IMG/VR virus record: IMGVR_UViG_2627854066_000004
Span: 1 to 36,127 of that record
Source: a virus
Taxonomy: Duplodnaviria; Heunggongvirae; Uroviricota; Caudoviricetes
Length of the DNA: 36,127 nt
Direction: 5' to 3' (one strand)
In this document: positions 1,799 through 36,127 of the stretch, one piece after another
Numbering within the stretch: the stretch's first letter is position 1
Layout of the letters: each line of letters starts with the position of its first letter
The notes under the pieces: model-generated
Told to the model about the DNA's origin: nothing
Database searches by the model: none
The model's input: only the letters and a program-made list of their open reading frames with translations
Program-made: the position numbers and the translations under genes

Positions 1799-2140
1799 AT
1801 GAAACAGCAACGTAATTCACGCTTTCGTAATGGTGCTGAACGCCACGCTAACCGTTTCGCTACCAGTGCATCACGCAGCAACATCCGCTACAGCCTGAGT
1901 GATACACACGCAACGCCGGATGGCTACCCAGTAAAACAAATCGGCGAGCATGCCTGGCTGATTGAGAAAGCTGGAATCGTGGTTCACAAATGCCCACGCA
2001 ATCCGTTTACCGGAAACCGCATTTTTGCATTGAGCTGCGGCGACAATCAGTTCGGGCAGGATTTCACATTATACGAAGCACTACGCACGGTTGATCGTCT
2101 GCTTCGCGGGCAAAGTTTTATTAAACAGGCTGATTTATAA
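1799..2140 (+). CDS. hypothetical early protein
   Basis: 113-aa ORF with an AGGGAG RBS 7 nt upstream; position corresponds to the P2 early region. Confidence 0.5.
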   Translation: MKQQRNSRFRNGAERHANRFATSASRSNIRYSLSDTHATPDGYPVKQIGEHAWLIEKAGIVVHKCPRNPFTGNRIFALSCGDNQFGQDFTLYEALRTVDRLLRGQSFIKQADL

Positions 2141-2150
2141 CAGGTGCTTT

Positions 2151-2429
2151 ATGACCAAAGAGCATGCACAAGGTGTATTTATCCGTTTTATTGATTTTCG
2201 CGGTGAACTGTTATTACGCGCATCGGCTATTGATGCTGTAGTCCCGGCAGCAAAAGATGTGGCTACTTACCTTTATCTGAACGGCACGCGATTGTTTGTG
2301 GAACTTCCGTACCAGACCGTGCGCGAAATTATTAGCGAAGCTGAAAAAGCACGTCAGGTTAATGGCGATGAACCCTATATCGAAATTATCTGCATGGATT
2401 CAGAAGCTGAAATTCAAAAGGCAGATTAA
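2151..2429 (+). CDS. hypothetical early protein
   Basis: 92 aa from the ATG at 2151; the longer six-frame ORF starting at 2091 overlaps the preceding gene. Confidence 0.5.
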   Translation: MTKEHAQGVFIRFIDFRGELLLRASAIDAVVPAAKDVATYLYLNGTRLFVELPYQTVREIISEAEKARQVNGDEPYIEIICMDSEAEIQKAD

Positions 2430-2440
2430 AGGGCGTTGCG

Positions 2441-2683
2441 ATGGATAAAGAATATAAAACTCTCGTCAATAAAGCACTTGAGCGCTTTCATTTTCGCATA
2501 AGCGCATCAGGCACTCATGCTGAACTCGCAGCCCGAGAGTCATTGACCAGGGCCATCAAGAGTATATACGACACAGCTTTTTACATTGACGACCCGGACG
2601 CGCTCGACGAGCTTTCCATACTCGTCTGCGCCGCAGAAAACGGGGACCATATTGAGCCATATAAACTGGGGAATATTGCATGA
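2441..2683 (+). CDS. hypothetical early protein
   Basis: 80-aa ORF in the same operon orientation. Confidence 0.5.
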   Translation: MDKEYKTLVNKALERFHFRISASGTHAELAARESLTRAIKSIYDTAFYIDDPDALDELSILVCAAENGDHIEPYKLGNIA

Positions 2684-2793
2684 GTATATTTATCTCATGG
2701 CTTGTTCTGATTATTTCGGTGGCCTGCGCCATTGGGATTATGCGAATTATTCATTCAGTAAAAAAGATTGAACGCTTTTTCACTGGCGAATAA
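2680..2793 (+). CDS. small hydrophobic peptide (37 aa, one predicted TM helix)
   Basis: ATG at 2680 overlaps the upstream stop (ATGA) and has a GGGGA RBS; product MSIFISWLVLIISVACAIGIMRIIHSVKKIERFFTGE. Below the 60-aa cut-off of the ORF track. Confidence 0.35.
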   Translation: MSIFISWLVLIISVACAIGIMRIIHSVKKIERFFTGE

Positions 2794-2879
2794 CAGAGCA
2801 AATAAAACCACTGGTTAAATAAGAAAATGTAAAAACAATCCGCATTCGCGGAGGTATTCGCACACGCCAAGGAGGCGTA

Positions 2880-3083
2880 ATGGCAATTAAGCGATTTACC
2901 GTCGTTCGTTTCACTTCCAGAGGACGTGAATACGAAGTTGACGAACGGCTGATTAAAACGCTCGACCGTCACCGTTCGCAACCTGACGCGCATCACATTT
3001 ATCTCACCGACGACACTTACTTCTGCGCCACCAACGTGGTGCAGGTGAACCTTATCCGACAGGTACAGGAGTCACGCAGATGA
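2880..3083 (+). CDS. hypothetical early protein
   Basis: 67 aa with a strong AGGAGG RBS. Confidence 0.55.
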   Translation: MAIKRFTVVRFTSRGREYEVDERLIKTLDRHRSQPDAHHIYLTDDTYFCATNVVQVNLIRQVQESRR

Positions 3084-3325
3084 CCATTCTGGACTACATC
3101 ACAGCCAATCCGGGCTGTAGCGGTGGAGAAATCGCCGCAGCACTGAATACCCCAACTACAGCCATTAATGCGGAGTTACGCCGACTCTGGCGCAGCGGTT
3201 CAGTCGTAAGAAAAGAGCGCAAAACAGGTGGTCGGTTCTCTTACCAGGTAAACCCGATGCCGTTCGGGTGTGGTAACCCACTAACCCACATGTTTAACCA
3301 GCTACTGAAGGAAGCCAGAGCATGA
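3080..3325 (+). CDS. hypothetical protein, possible winged-helix DNA-binding
   Basis: 81 aa, ATGA overlap with the upstream gene; helix-turn-helix-like segment GEIAAALNTPTTAINAELRRL. Confidence 0.5.
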   Translation: MTILDYITANPGCSGGEIAAALNTPTTAINAELRRLWRSGSVVRKERKTGGRFSYQVNPMPFGCGNPLTHMFNQLLKEARA

Positions 3326-33962: not shown

Positions 33963-34223
33963 ATGTTCCGTTGTCCGCTTTGTGGCGCATCTGCCCGTAT
34001 CCGCACCAGTCGTCCGGAAAATGATTCAAACACCGTGCGGCAAAAGTATTACCAGTGTAACAATCTGGAATGCGGCGTATGCTTCTCAACACTGGAAGCT
34101 TTCCATAAATTCACATCGAAACATGCCTCCGGCGTTCACTCTTCAGAAGGTATCCCGTGGCATGAGCTGCCAGCTTCACACAGGGGAAACAATCAGATGA
34201 GCTTGCCTTTATCTCAGAATTAA
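33963..34223 (+). CDS. ogr: late-gene transcription activator, Ogr/Delta zinc-finger family
   Basis: N-terminus MFRCPLCGASARIRTSR...YYQCNNLECGVCF with four Cys in the Ogr arrangement. Confidence 0.8.
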   Translation: MFRCPLCGASARIRTSRPENDSNTVRQKYYQCNNLECGVCFSTLEAFHKFTSKHASGVHSSEGIPWHELPASHRGNNQMSLPLSQN

Positions 34224-34413
34224 CAGGCAGAATTGCCGGAGTAACAAAAAAGCGATAGATTACGCGCGGGTGCCTTTCGGCTGATGGTCGGAGGGAATAC
34301 CCGAAGGCCGGATGTGGAAAGGCCCCGGAAAACATTTCTGTTTAACCGAGGCCCTAACCGCATTACCTTGACAAGTGAAAGGTTAGCGCCTCTCCGGAAA
34401 AGGAGCAAGTGCT

Positions 34414-34554
34414 ATGTCGCAAAAATCGCTTACGGCCATCACGTTCTGCGTGACGGCAATCCTCATCATCTGGATGCTGCATGGTTCGCTGTGCGAAATA
34501 CGGATGAGCTTCTGGGGAGCGGAGTTTGCGGCGTTCTTACAGTGTAAGCAGTAA
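34414..34554 (+). CDS. Hok/Gef-family type I toxin-like small membrane protein
   Basis: 46 aa (MSQKSLTAITFCVTAILIIWMLHGSLCEIRMSFWGAEFAAFLQCKQ): N-terminal TM helix, then the SLCEIR and AAF motifs seen in Hok/Gef; AAAGGAG RBS. A longer out-of-frame ORF (34284-34547) overlaps it in a mok-like manner. Confidence 0.55.
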   Translation: MSQKSLTAITFCVTAILIIWMLHGSLCEIRMSFWGAEFAAFLQCKQ

Positions 34555-34689
34555 GGAAACCGCGACGGGGGAGCAATCCCCCGTCAATCGGTTGCCAGGG
34601 TATGGTCGAAGTGGCACCCAAATTTAAATTGAGGCCCACCAGTAAGAGTGGTGGGTTTAACGCTTATTTAAATTTGAAAGGAACTCTTT

Positions 34690-34986
34690 ATGAGTGAAAT
34701 GGTATTTTGTCGCGGATGCGGCAAGGAAATACATAAAGATGCCACATCCTGCCCCAATTGTGGAGCACCTCAAAGAACAGCAAGTTCAAAAAGCAGAATG
34801 ACAGCCGCACTACTGGCTTTCTTTTTAGGTGGTCTTGGTGCACACAAATTTTATTTAGGTAAAGTGGGGCAAGGATTCCTTTACCTTATTTTTTGCTGGA
34901 CATTCATTCCGGCAATCGTGGCATTTATTGAGTTTTTTATCTATCTATGCACCTCTGATGAAGACTTTGCCCGCAAATATGGCTAA
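34690..34986 (+). CDS. zinc-ribbon plus TM2-domain membrane protein
   Basis: 98 aa; CRGCG...CPNCG zinc ribbon followed by two hydrophobic helices (AALLAFFLGGLGAHKFYLG...). Confidence 0.6.
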   Translation: MSEMVFCRGCGKEIHKDATSCPNCGAPQRTASSKSRMTAALLAFFLGGLGAHKFYLGKVGQGFLYLIFCWTFIPAIVAFIEFFIYLCTSDEDFARKYG

Positions 34987-35012
34987 TGCCTAGTGGGCGA
35001 ATCAGAATGACA

Positions 35013-35047
35013 AACCCGCAGCGTAAAAACTGCGGGTTTTCTTTTTG
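35013..35047 (+). terminator. rho-independent terminator
   Basis: ACCCGCAG-CGTAAAAA-CTGCGGGT followed by TTTTCTTTTTG. Confidence 0.65.
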
Positions 35048-35096
35048 TCACCCTCACAAATGAGGGTAACACCACTCATAAGTAATAGGCATAACA

Positions 35097-35131
35097 GATC
35101 GATGCAATAAATCCGATCGATAAAAACGATC
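35097..35131. promoter_or_regulatory. cluster of three GATC (Dam) sites within GATCGAT repeats upstream of the com-like gene
   Basis: GATC at 35097, 35115 and 35128, each in the context CGATCGAT, 50-80 bp upstream of the com-like start. Confidence 0.45.
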
Positions 35132-35178
35132 GATTTGTTATCATATCGGCAGCAGTAACCACACAAGAGGTGCCGCAA

Positions 35179-35376
35179 ATGACGCAAAATGTACGATGCA
35201 AAAATTGCAACAAACTACTTGCCCGCGCCTCATTTCACTACATTGAAATAAAATGTCCGCGCTGCAAAACACTTAACCAGATAACGAGAGCCATCGAGCA
35301 CCCCACACACATGAGGAGTTATGACCGTGGGGATCGCAATCCAGCACCAACCAGCACATACACCGGAACACACTAA
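35179..35376 (+). CDS. com: Com-like zinc-finger protein (phage Mu Com family translational regulator)
   Basis: 65 aa; RCKNCNKLL...IEIKCPRCK matches the Mu Com zinc finger nearly residue for residue as recalled; AGAGG RBS; the 3' end overlaps the downstream methyltransferase start. Confidence 0.7.
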   Translation: MTQNVRCKNCNKLLARASFHYIEIKCPRCKTLNQITRAIEHPTHMRSYDRGDRNPAPTSTYTGTH

Positions 35377-36127
35377 GGTTTATCAGACTGACAATGCCAC
35401 GCTCTGTCGTGGGAATGCGCTGGAAATATTGCCGCTGATTGAGCCAGAAAGCATTGATGCCTTAATCACTGACCCGCCTTACAGTTCGGGTGCGACACAC
35501 AAGGCCGGACGCACCAACCAAGGCAGCCATGCAAAATATCTGAACGGCGAGAACCTTCACCGCTTTGATGGGTTCGCGGGTGAAAACATGGACGCCCGTT
35601 CGTGGGCTTACTGGACACAATTATGGATGGCACAGGCACACCGCGCAGTCAGGCCGGGCGGTTATGCCCTGGTATTTACTGACTGGCGACAACTACCAGC
35701 TTTAACCGATGCGTTTCAGGCCAGCGGCTTTACATGGCGCGGCATCATTGCGTGGAACAAGGGGAGGGGGTCACGAACACCCCATACGGGGTATTTCAGG
35801 CATCAGTGCGAATACATCGTCTGGGGCAGCAAAGGCCATTTAGATAAATCGCCTTCGGGGCCGTTCGACGGCTGCATGACGTACCCGGTTATCCCGTCAA
35901 AGAAAATGCACCCGACCGGAAAACCAGAAGAACTAATGGCGGAACTGGTCAGGACTGTGAATAGTGGCGGAACAGTCCTTGATCCTTTTATGGGGTCAGG
36001 GACAACGGGTGTGGCTGCACTGAAAGCAGGGCGAAAATTTATTGGTATAGAAACCAGTGATCATTATTTTGAGGTAGCAGCGCAGCGGCTTCGGGGGACT
36101 ATTACCACAACCATTTCGGCTACATAA
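35321..36127 (+). CDS. DNA methyltransferase, beta-class amino-MTase (N6-adenine or N4-cytosine)
   Basis: 268 aa; catalytic motif ITDPPYS near the N-terminus and the AdoMet-binding motif DPFMGSGTTGVAA near the C-terminus (motif IV before motif I). Stop codon is the last three bases of the window. Confidence 0.85.
   Translation: MTVGIAIQHQPAHTPEHTKVYQTDNATLCRGNALEILPLIEPESIDALITDPPYSSGATHKAGRTNQGSHAKYLNGENLHRFDGFAGENMDARSWAYWTQLWMAQAHRAVRPGGYALVFTDWRQLPALTDAFQASGFTWRGIIAWNKGRGSRTPHTGYFRHQCEYIVWGSKGHLDKSPSGPFDGCMTYPVIPSKKMHPTGKPEELMAELVRTVNSGGTVLDPFMGSGTTGVAALKAGRKFIGIETSDHYFEVAAQRLRGTITTTISAT

Follow-up and report, generated by a model that had tools for sequence, protein, structure and literature searches.

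The last two genes of the DNA analyzed here, a stretch of 36,127 nucleotides that we refer to as the window, encode a Com protein and a DNA methyltransferase, and they constitute the accessory operon at the end of a P2-like (Peduoviridae) prophage of E. coli. This operon is, with a probability of about 80%, a cargo-swapped version of the com-mom cassette of phage Mu, in which Mom has been replaced by an orphan beta-class methyltransferase and which operates by the mechanism proposed below. Direct support comes from the homology of Com and of the methyltransferase, from cis elements that are both present and conserved, and from the orphan status of the methyltransferase. The features of the locus are as follows.

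35012-35039, + strand: intrinsic terminator of the TM2-domain gene upstream of com (10-pair GC-rich stem followed by a T-run)
35094-35130, no strand assigned: OxyR-like tetramer site containing three Dam sites (from OxyR consensus score and GATC spacing)
35097-35100, 35115-35118, and 35128-35131: GATC I, II, and III, within the OxyR-like site
35117-35144, + strand: predicted sigma-70 extended -10 promoter (-35 TCGATA at 35117-35122, TG at 35136-35137, -10 TATCAT at 35139-35144)
35165-35170, + strand: Shine-Dalgarno sequence of com, AAGAGG
35179-35376, + strand: com, encoding a 65-amino acid CCCC zinc-ribbon protein, a predicted RNA-binding translational activator (from PF10122 and identity to Mu Com)
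35286-35302, + strand: predicted Com-binding RNA site, GAGAGCC-AUC-GAGCACC (from SELEX motif match)
35301-35332, + strand: translation-inhibition hairpin (CCCCAC at 35301-35306 paired with GUGGGG at 35327-35332)
35313-35318, + strand: Shine-Dalgarno sequence of the methyltransferase gene, GAGGAG, in the loop region of the hairpin
35327-36127, + strand: orphan beta-class DNA amino-methyltransferase (PF01555), from the conserved GTG (from 35321 if the ATG called by RefSeq is used)

The gene layout and coordinates proposed in an earlier sequence-only reading of the window were all recovered. That reading had placed the module just beyond ogr (33963-34223); the two are not directly adjacent, as hok/gef-sok and the TM2-domain gene intervene. 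The TM2-domain gene, located between ogr and com, has its own terminator, which makes com and the methyltransferase gene a separate transcription unit. The methyltransferase gene is the last gene of the window, which ends at its TAA stop codon.

The com product contains MTQNVRCKNCNKLL and, further on, IEIKCPRCK. It matches the Pfam family Zn_ribbon_Com (PF10122; E 9.5e-12) and is 60% identical to Mu Com over 42 amino acids (E 1e-15), in agreement with the initial identification of this small protein as a Mu Com homologue. Residues R6, C7, C10, C26, P27, R28, and C29 are invariant among 16 homologues. As in Mu, com lies directly 5' of a modification gene and overlaps it, here by 50-56 nt, and the overlap with the methyltransferase start described earlier is thereby confirmed. 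RefSeq names the product 'Com family DNA-binding transcriptional regulator', and a role for Com at this locus as a DNA-binding transcriptional regulator, rather than a translational activator, would fit that name. We consider this very unlikely, since published biochemistry has Com binding mom mRNA and activating its translation, the literature on Com that was examined gave no sign of DNA binding, and the locus carries both the exact RNA motif and a start-codon hairpin (see below).

The cargo gene product matches PF01555 (N6_N4_Mtase; E 2e-33) and no other family, and is thus not Mom, the acetamido-adenine enzyme (PF25680) encoded at the equivalent position in Mu. DPPY occurs at about amino acids 51-54 and FMGSGTT near amino acid 222 (ATG numbering), such that motif IV precedes motif I. 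This is the order of beta-class AdoMet methyltransferases, and the class assigned on the basis of the two motifs is confirmed. The likely start, to judge from the alleles, is GTG 35327 rather than the ATG at 35321 used by RefSeq; one allele (L012) lacks the ATG, and its methyltransferase starts at the GTG. Phage homologues align to the methyltransferase only from amino acids 14-28, which indicates that its N-terminus is a junction-specific extension.

The DPPY motif suggests that the methyltransferase is probably N6-adenine specific. Its closest solved structures are the small beta-class adenine methyltransferases 5hek and 5hfj (E 1e-20), which are too distant for a target site to be transferred, and no close homologue that has been characterized was found. 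Membership in the Hia5/Hin1523 subfamily was rejected, as the Hia5 family is Dam-related and has motif I before DPPY. Membership in the M.EcoGII subfamily was rejected as well; an M.EcoGII-like protein (352 amino acids, compared with 266 here) has 22-33% identity to the window methyltransferase in two motif blocks only. The literature offered nothing usable on target specificity by way of Bpm of Bordetella BPP-1 (53% identical) or of the RefSeq product name, and the E. coli methylome papers on ST131, O111, and O145 do not mention the gene.

The window ends at the stop codon of the methyltransferase gene, and so whatever follows was invisible to the sequence-only reading. A cognate endonuclease past this point, with the methyltransferase serving as the modification half of a restriction-modification system, would be consistent with such an end, but is extremely unlikely given the downstream sequence. 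In E. coli DSM 103246, the methyltransferase gene is followed by host raiA after about 150 bp. Four other integration sites have other host genes in this place: flk; a GGACT-domain gene and tamB; an HU-family gene and pheT; and a sulfatase gene. In the free phage Chuche, a 30-amino acid hypothetical ORF and then the integrase gene follow. No cognate endonuclease or nuclease domain was found beside the methyltransferase in these six contexts, which consist of host genes or attP/int. The absence of an adjacent restriction endonuclease that had been noted for the window therefore extends beyond its end.

The three GATC sites upstream of com were present as reported, at 35097, 35115, and 35128. 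Each lies in a GATCGAT heptamer, and no other GATCGAT occurs in the 36-kb window. A group of three within 31 bp among the 84 GATC sites of the window is in itself not unusual (P about 0.17); three random heptamer sites this close together have a P of about 2.5e-6. The spacing of 18 and 13 bp is exactly that of the three GATC sites upstream of Mu com-mom (P about 5e-4 by chance), and is nearly that of agn43 (19 and 13 bp). Scored against the OxyR consensus ATAGnTnnnAnCTAT-N7-ATAGnTnnnAnCTAT, the cluster has 15 of 20 matches, the top score in the window; two validated sites, those of Mu mom and agn43, score 13 and 14 of 20, respectively. A layout resembling the control of Mu mom by GATC methylation, as had been suggested, is thus supported in the spacing and the OxyR match, and we infer that the operon depends on Dam, OxyR, and Com.

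GATC II and III are located at -64 and -51 with respect to the com ATG, and are positioned within a few nucleotides of this in related loci, including independent lineages in which the cargo is Mom, a C5-methyltransferase (C5-MTase), or a beta-class methyltransferase (beta-MTase). An allele with 92% identity retains all three GATC sites though its flanks differ, which may reflect selection on GATC. The entire GATC/OxyR site is absent from five alleles of E. albertii and some E. coli drafts (L009, L020, L010, L011, and L032). Dam/OxyR control is thus dispensable, as the -10 element, com, hairpin, and methyltransferase gene are all retained in these alleles.

That some alleles do without the cluster is compatible with its having a function other than OxyR binding. 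It might constitute a directly Dam-sensitive promoter of the IS10/traJ type, a SeqA site, or an operator for another phage-encoded regulator; GATC II and III fall within the predicted promoter, in its -35 hexamer and its spacer, and the CGATCGAT repeats are both direct and inverted, as could suit an operator. These possibilities are rather improbable, since the spacing is identical to that of a cluster shown experimentally to be bound by OxyR (Mu mom) and near-identical to that of agn43, since the top OxyR score of the window falls here, and since the 13-bp pair agrees with the OxyR half site established for gtr, in which a GATC pair 13 bp apart sits inside one half site.

The predicted promoter is the sole promoter-like site in positions 34300-36127, having 9 of 12 matches plus the TG, and transcription is inferred to start near 35151. 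All P2-type alleles share its -10 element, even the ones that lack the GATC sites. The OxyR-like site overlaps the predicted -35 and covers roughly -57 to -21. In Mu, transcription is controlled by Dam and OxyR and by the activator C, and Com activates translation by acting through a translation-inhibition hairpin. This locus lacks the Mu segment of roughly 27 bp in which the weak Pmom and the C-binding site are located; there is neither a TTAT-N6-ATAA nor a T6 run upstream of com, and GATC III is 51 nt from the com ATG, compared with 78 nt in Mu. In place of the C box and weak Pmom of Mu (19-bp spacer) stands a TGnTATCAT promoter, which the OxyR-like site overlaps directly. An Ogr-type late promoter was considered and rejected, as TGT-N12-ACA occurs four times in the window but nowhere upstream of com, and the copy at 35254 is inside the com coding sequence. 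The sequence 'TAACCACAC' is common to this region and the Mu -35 region; it cannot be a -35 element, being just 14 nt before the com ATG, and we regard it as a remnant or a coincidence.

The promoter thus seems to be activator-independent, and together with the agn43-like overlap of OxyR site and three GATC sites this means that the operon could flip heritably. The operon might then be a phase-variable epigenetic switch in lysogens, OFF when unmethylated and bound by OxyR and ON when methylated, rather than being expressed only late in the lytic cycle. The lack of both a C box and an Ogr box at the extended -10 promoter, the location of the OxyR-like site at the promoter, and GATC spacings like those of phase-varying agn43 would fit such a switch, and the literature leaves the phase variation of Mu mom itself undecided. 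We nevertheless judge it unlikely, as the comparable prophage enzymes M.EcoGI/II and M.EcoMIV/V stay silent in lysogens and are toxic upon expression, as the transcription start is a prediction, and as the translational lock by Com suggests tight shut-off over routine expression. A switch of this kind would give rise to lysogen subpopulations with an extra methylation pattern.

The second layer of control proposed for the operon is located within the 3' part of com. The Com motif defined by SELEX is bipartite, NGAGNNCC(N)2-3GAGNNCCNN, and its CC(N)2-3GAG occupies a 6-nt loop that a C-G pair closes. The sequence GAGAGCCAUCGAGCACC at 35286-35302 matches this motif perfectly, and is the one match in the window (0.02 expected by chance). 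The stem would be formed by GAGC/GCAC (35288-35291 paired with 35298-35301, with an A.A mismatch), closing the 6-nt loop CAUCGA by C-G. The minimum free energy (MFE) fold does not draw this hairpin in the window. One match per locus was found in 14 of the 20 com loci fetched, and the stem pairs, counted by script, covary across phages.

The Com motif abuts, on the 5' side, an inhibitory hairpin that contains the GUG start of the methyltransferase gene. The hairpin has an MFE of -17.5 kcal/mol (z -2.6), its CCCCAC/GUGGGG pairing occurs in MFE and centroid folds, and the AUG at 35321 is paired in its inner stem. Four lineages have the GUG start inside the hairpin in their MFE folds. The CCCAC...GUGGG pairing also occurs in Mu, whose stem includes the mom GUG start, and in four further enteric lineages, the cargo being Mom, C5-MTase, or beta-MTase. 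No covariation was seen in the arms of the hairpin among enteric com loci, as the arms are invariant there. The 5' arm also codes for the conserved Com peptide EHPT, such that conservation at the RNA level and at the protein level are confounded. No Rfam family covers the com/hairpin RNA; a sub-threshold sok match and noise were the only results. Folding of the region around the methyltransferase start, which had been suggested as a check for a Com-binding stem-loop, thus yielded a start-codon hairpin and an adjoining predicted Com site.

The proposed mechanism is as follows. Transcription would proceed from the extended -10 promoter, whose -35 and upstream region are overlapped by the OxyR-type site with its three Dam targets. 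With the GATC sites unmethylated, OxyR would bind and occlude the promoter; Dam methylation would exclude OxyR and turn transcription on. The bicistronic mRNA would yield Com first, the GUG start at 35327 being locked in the hairpin until Com acts. Binding of Com to the small adjoining hairpin (CC-AUC-GAG loop) would open the inhibitory structure, and the methyltransferase would then be translated. The enzyme would modify replicating phage DNA, and unavoidably host DNA as well, and methylated progeny would be protected from restriction in the next host.

The operon resembles Mu com-mom in the Com protein, in the three GATC sites within an OxyR-type site, in the CC(N)3GAG hairpin adjoining a CCCAC/GUGGG hairpin with a GUG start, in the overlap of com with the cargo gene, and in its location at the phage's right end. 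The proposal that the control logic of Mu is wired here to a conventional methyltransferase is supported at the sequence level by Com, the GATC/OxyR site, the RNA motif, and the hairpin. The logic is the same with respect to the Dam/OxyR-type site, the Com RNA site, and the hairpin, but not the C activator box, which is absent. The phage differs too, being P2-like rather than Mu-like.

The combination of com and a methyltransferase had been taken as unusual, which was not borne out; it is already known from FluMu/Hia5, phage B3, and the P2-like phages KS5 and Smp131. In the Mu-like prophages FluMu, Pnm1, and that of H. aegyptius, a com homologue is followed by the methyltransferase Hin1523, Nme1821, or Hia5 in the position of mom, and regulation by Com was proposed (Drozdz et al. 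2012, PMC3299994). These enzymes, like that of the window prophage, replace Mom, but are Dam-related, with motif I before DPPY and the DPPY aspartate at D191/D194, and methylate adenine near-nonspecifically (PMC3299994). Closer in phage type are Burkholderia KS5 (gp21 Com and gp20 N4/N6 methylase; PMC3091744), compared by its published description, and Stenotrophomonas Smp131 (gp05 and gp04), both of which are P2-like and have an overlapping Com and PF01555 pair; identity between the methyltransferases of Smp131 and the window is 47%. Neither host is an enterobacterium, and the module is among tail genes in KS5 and beside portal/terminase genes in Smp131. Smp131 showed no GATC/OxyR-type cluster, and the CCCAC/GUGGG hairpin of the enteric loci was not seen there either.

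The promoter region has parallels in agn43 (flu) and Salmonella/P22 gtr, in which OxyR half sites likewise contain GATC sites, two of them 13 bp apart and the third 18-19 bp upstream, and the site overlaps or abuts the promoter. These promoters drive surface-antigen genes without Com or a translational layer, and their phase variation is demonstrated, whereas here it is hypothesized. Like the window methyltransferase, M.EcoGI and M.EcoGII are orphan enzymes of the beta class that are carried by E. coli prophages. They come from lambdoid prophages, methylate adenine non-specifically, are silent in lysogens, and have a presumed role in anti-restriction (PMC5778455). No description of a com gene, hairpin, or GATC cassette for them was found in that paper. 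The similarity to the window methyltransferase is at the level of motifs only, and non-specificity is therefore not transferable to it.

Of 5426 complete E. coli genomes, 173 (about 3%) already have the locus annotated in RefSeq, and the full region is present in all 173 that carry the module. In IMG/VR, the 80 com loci with the best matches have Mom, D12, beta-class, and C5 methyltransferases as partners of com. Mom accounted for just 14 of the 45 distinct cargo proteins in this sample, and is thus no requirement of the wider com family. The locus is a further case of a known com-controlled modification operon, and not a new kind of system.

Several consequences follow for annotation and experiment. 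The start codon of the methyltransferase gene is likely misassigned, and the label 'DNA-binding transcriptional regulator' for Com is to be corrected. The natural sequence variants of the locus may be used for studies of Com-RNA recognition. A methyltransferase that is predicted to be silent and potentially toxic, and that is an orphan, could confound the reading of methylomes or aid the escape of phage and DNA from restriction. More speculatively, and improbably at present, P2-like prophages may have freed the cassette of a phage activator, such that an agn43-type Dam/OxyR switch and a Com threshold alone produce a heritable ON/OFF orphan methyltransferase; this would be a 'phasevarion' driven by DNA methylation and not by simple-sequence repeats.

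The locus shows the complete control cassette of Mu mom behaving as a portable unit made up of Dam/OxyR site, com, Com RNA site, and start-codon hairpin; the cargo is joined to it immediately after the GUG-GG(G/A) start. Enteric phages fuse this one cassette to three unrelated enzymes: Mom, a C5-cytosine methyltransferase, and a beta-class methyltransferase.

The com-methyltransferase (MTase) module is best explained as a Mu com-mom cassette whose cargo, the modification gene that overlaps or follows com, has been swapped. Its features in the window are as follows.

35012–35039, + strand: intrinsic terminator, separating the com operon from the upstream gene
35097, 35115, and 35128: GATC I, II, and III, each inside GATCGAT; the sole three GATCGAT heptamers in 36 kb
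35117–35144, + strand: predicted sigma-70 promoter, TCGATA-16-TATCAT with a TG extended -10; the sole sigma-70-like promoter in the region
35179–35376, + strand: com, 65 amino acids, two CxxC pairs (RCKNCNKLL...IEIKCPRCK)
overlapping com in another frame and ending at the last base of the window, + strand: MTase ORF, 266–268 amino acids, DPPY near the N-terminus and FMGSGTT near the C-terminus

The small protein, proposed in the sequence-only reading to be Com-like, matches Zn_ribbon_Com in Pfam (E = 9.5e-12) and shares 60% identity with Mu Com in a 42-residue alignment. Its RefSeq entry (WP_001353016.1, window 35179–35376) is named 'Com family DNA-binding transcriptional regulator', which conflicts with the published RNA-binding role of Com; the name is probably misleading, as the experimental literature describes an RNA-binding translational activator. 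The overlapping beta-class MTase is likewise as that reading described, in ORF and in DPPY and FMGSGTT motifs, and matches N6_N4_Mtase (PF01555, E = 2e-33); the closest solved structures are small beta-class adenine methyltransferases. Judging from DPPY, the enzyme is probably N6-adenine specific. It falls outside the Hia5 family and has M.EcoGII-like enzymes only as distant relatives, and thus nonspecific methylation cannot be assumed.

The target RNA of Com presents CC(N)2-3GAG within a six-nucleotide hairpin loop that has a C-G closing pair, and the SELEX-derived bipartite motif is NGAGNNCC(N)2-3GAGNNCCNN (Nowacka et al. 2019). A perfect match to this motif (GAGAGCCAUCGAGCACC, 35286–35302) occurs at a single place in the window, against a chance expectation of 0.02. 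It directly adjoins CCCCAC (35301–35306), which pairs with GUGGGG (35327–35332). Folding of the RNA around the MTase start, a check suggested earlier, returned this hairpin as both the MFE and the centroid structure (-17.5 kcal/mol, z = -2.6), with the AUG at 35321 paired in its inner stem. Mu com-mom has an equivalent CCCAC...GUGGG pairing.

Diverged Com homologues were followed to their contigs and aligned. In all enteric loci CCCAC/GUGGG is kept and the cargo gene opens with the codons GUG GG(G/A), whether the cargo is a beta-class MTase, Mom (L015–L017), or a C5-cytosine methyltransferase (L006). The last of these loci (1950–3207), from a Mu-like phage within Stx2c phage JNE082796, encodes a Com 65% identical to that of the window, the hairpin CCCCAC...GUGGGG, two upstream GATCs 13 bp apart, and an enzyme with a GTPCQ motif (PF00145). 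Com is also paired with a C5-cytosine methyltransferase in L040 and L046–L048, giving the cassette a third type of cargo, unrelated to the other two. The com-mom loci L015–L017 (E. coli) follow a SASA-domain esterase gene, DUF1378, and DUF826 (typical of Stx/lambdoid prophages) rather than lying in an evident Mu-like genome; they may be a nested Mu-like insertion.

One allele (L012) lacks an AUG, leaving GUG as the sole possible start. In Salmonella enterica locus L013 (1897–1938), the called MTase start at 1938 reads ATT, and an in-frame GTG lies upstream at ~1897 within the conserved hairpin (CCCCACA...UGUGGGG); the annotation probably misplaces the start, and the true gene would overlap com as at other loci. 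Together with the conserved GUG in the hairpin, these alleles point to GTG 35327, and not the annotated ATG 35321, as the most likely MTase start in the window.

The three GATCs noted earlier upstream of com, in GATCGAT repeats, lie at 35097, 35115, and 35128, and their intervals of 18 and 13 bp are identical to those in Mu com-mom. GATC is rarer than expected in the window (84 observed versus 131 expected). In simulations, 3 of 84 random sites falling inside 31 bp was not rare (P ~0.17); the exact 18/13 spacing had P ~5e-4, and three heptamer sites as close as the GATCGAT trio P ~2.5e-6. In the P22 gtr switch, a single OxyR half site, ATAGxTxxxAxCTAT, holds a GATC pair 13 bp apart (Broadbent et al. 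2010), and ATCGATAAAAACGAT at 35116–35130 matches this pattern. Against the full OxyR tetramer consensus, 35094–35130 scores 15 of 20, the best of all window positions on both strands, as compared to 13 and 14 for the validated sites of Mu mom and agn43. This OxyR-like site overlaps the predicted promoter. Past the terminator and before the GATC cluster comes a perfect 6-bp inverted repeat, CCCTCA-caaa-TGAGGG (35051–35066), which several alleles keep (L009, L012, L020) and which is replaced in phage Chuche and L010.

Unlike Mu, the window lacks the segment carrying the C-activator site and the weak Pmom with its 19-bp spacer, and GATC III lies 51 nt from the com ATG rather than 78 nt. No Ogr-type TGT-N12-ACA box was found upstream of com. 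The main alternative, a less likely one, is phase variation in lysogens: if neither C nor Ogr is required, an agn43-like switch could turn the com-MTase operon on and off; the three GATCs of agn43 are 19 and 13 bp apart, as against 18 and 13 in the window.

GATC II and III lie at -64 and -51 from the com ATG, with related loci within a few nucleotides, and this placement recurs in lineages carrying each of the three types of cargo. The three GATCs all persist in an E. coli allele of 92% identity whose flanking bases have changed, and each of the 173 complete E. coli genomes that carry the module has the full regulatory region. The ~35-bp GATC/OxyR-like cluster has been lost, by deletion or mutation (GATC to GATA), in two E. 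albertii loci (L009 and L020), two E. coli drafts (L010/L011), and an IMG/VR locus (L032), deletion end-points falling in the GATCGAT repeats. The OxyR score drops to 10 of 20 in these alleles, while the -10, com, hairpin, and MTase are intact, which argues that the Dam/OxyR layer is optional.

The genes 5' of the module (gpD, an Ogr/Delta zinc-finger gene, a hok/gef toxin, and a TM2-domain gene) identify the element as a P2-like prophage. The 1.1-kb module segment has 100% identical copies in many E. coli chromosomes, annotated in RefSeq as 'Com family DNA-binding transcriptional regulator' and 'DNA-methyltransferase'. The next gene is host raiA in E. coli DSM 103246 and, in other genomes, flk, a GGACT-domain gene and tamB, an HU-family gene and pheT, or a sulfatase gene; in free phage Chuche, the integrase comes next but for a 30-aa hypothetical ORF in between. 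These contexts place the MTase as the last prophage gene, beside attR. The sequence-only reading had found no adjacent endonuclease, and this holds for what follows the MTase in these genomes, excluding a restriction-modification system.

The hok/gef-type ORF (34414–34554; HOK_GEF, E = 4e-7), located after ogr and before the com operon, overlaps a sok-like antisense RNA region (Rfam RF01794, 46 bits, E = 1e-8, short of the gathering score of 59); this stretch (34268–34554) also occurs in Chuche and other alleles. Within 34690–35039, a gene for a 98-aa protein with an N-terminal zinc ribbon and a TM2 domain (PF05154, E = 5e-19) has a strong terminator of its own behind it (35012–35039). Chuche and several further alleles lack this gene, which has the look of a moron acquired independently.

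At least 517 com loci occur in IMG/VR. The best 80 yielded 45 distinct downstream proteins; Pfam classes 14 of these as Mom, 14 as D12 methyltransferases (10 of them nearest by BLAST to the phage B3 enzyme), 9 as N6_N4 methyltransferases, and 4 as C5 methyltransferases. The bipartite Com motif occurs in about half of the surveyed loci, spanning 36–66% GC, with compensatory changes in its 4-bp stem (GCAC/GUGC, GUGC/GCAC, GCGC/GCGC, and GGGC/GCCC). Natural hairpins with such changes that fit the SELEX motif are found among L061–L095 (e.g., L082, L065, L085), and in enteric Com-site hairpins the second stem pair is instead mismatched (A.A, A.C, or C.A).

The proposal of Mu mom-like control wired to an MTase is upheld at the sequence level by the Com homologue, by GATCs spaced 18/13, and by the presence of both the Com RNA motif and the GUG hairpin. 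Homology and cis elements are what the sequence shows; binding, dependence, timing, and target are predictions. With the GATCs unmethylated, OxyR would repress the promoter, and their methylation by Dam would lift repression. The transcript would yield Com, which would bind its own hairpin and open the start-codon hairpin, allowing MTase synthesis; the orphan MTase may then modify phage DNA against restriction.

Replacement of Mom by a methyltransferase next to com is already published or annotated. It occurs in FluMu (Hin1523), Pnm1 (Nme1821), and H. aegyptius (Hia5), whose enzymes are Dam-related and nearly nonspecific (Drozdz et al. 2012, PMC3299994), and P2-like Burkholderia phage KS5 encodes a methylase of the PF01555 family together with a 'Com translational regulator' (Lynch et al. 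2010, PMC3091744). Phage B3 shares the pairing (Drozdz et al. 2012), and annotations show it in E. coli phage Chuche and in P2-like Stenotrophomonas phage Smp131, whose MTase is 47% identical to that of the window. What is new here is that the E. coli P2-type version keeps the whole Mu cis cassette (exact GATC spacing, Com RNA motif, and GUG hairpin), that an extended -10 promoter under an OxyR-like site replaces the C box, and that in enterics the hairpin is directly followed by the junction with the cargo.
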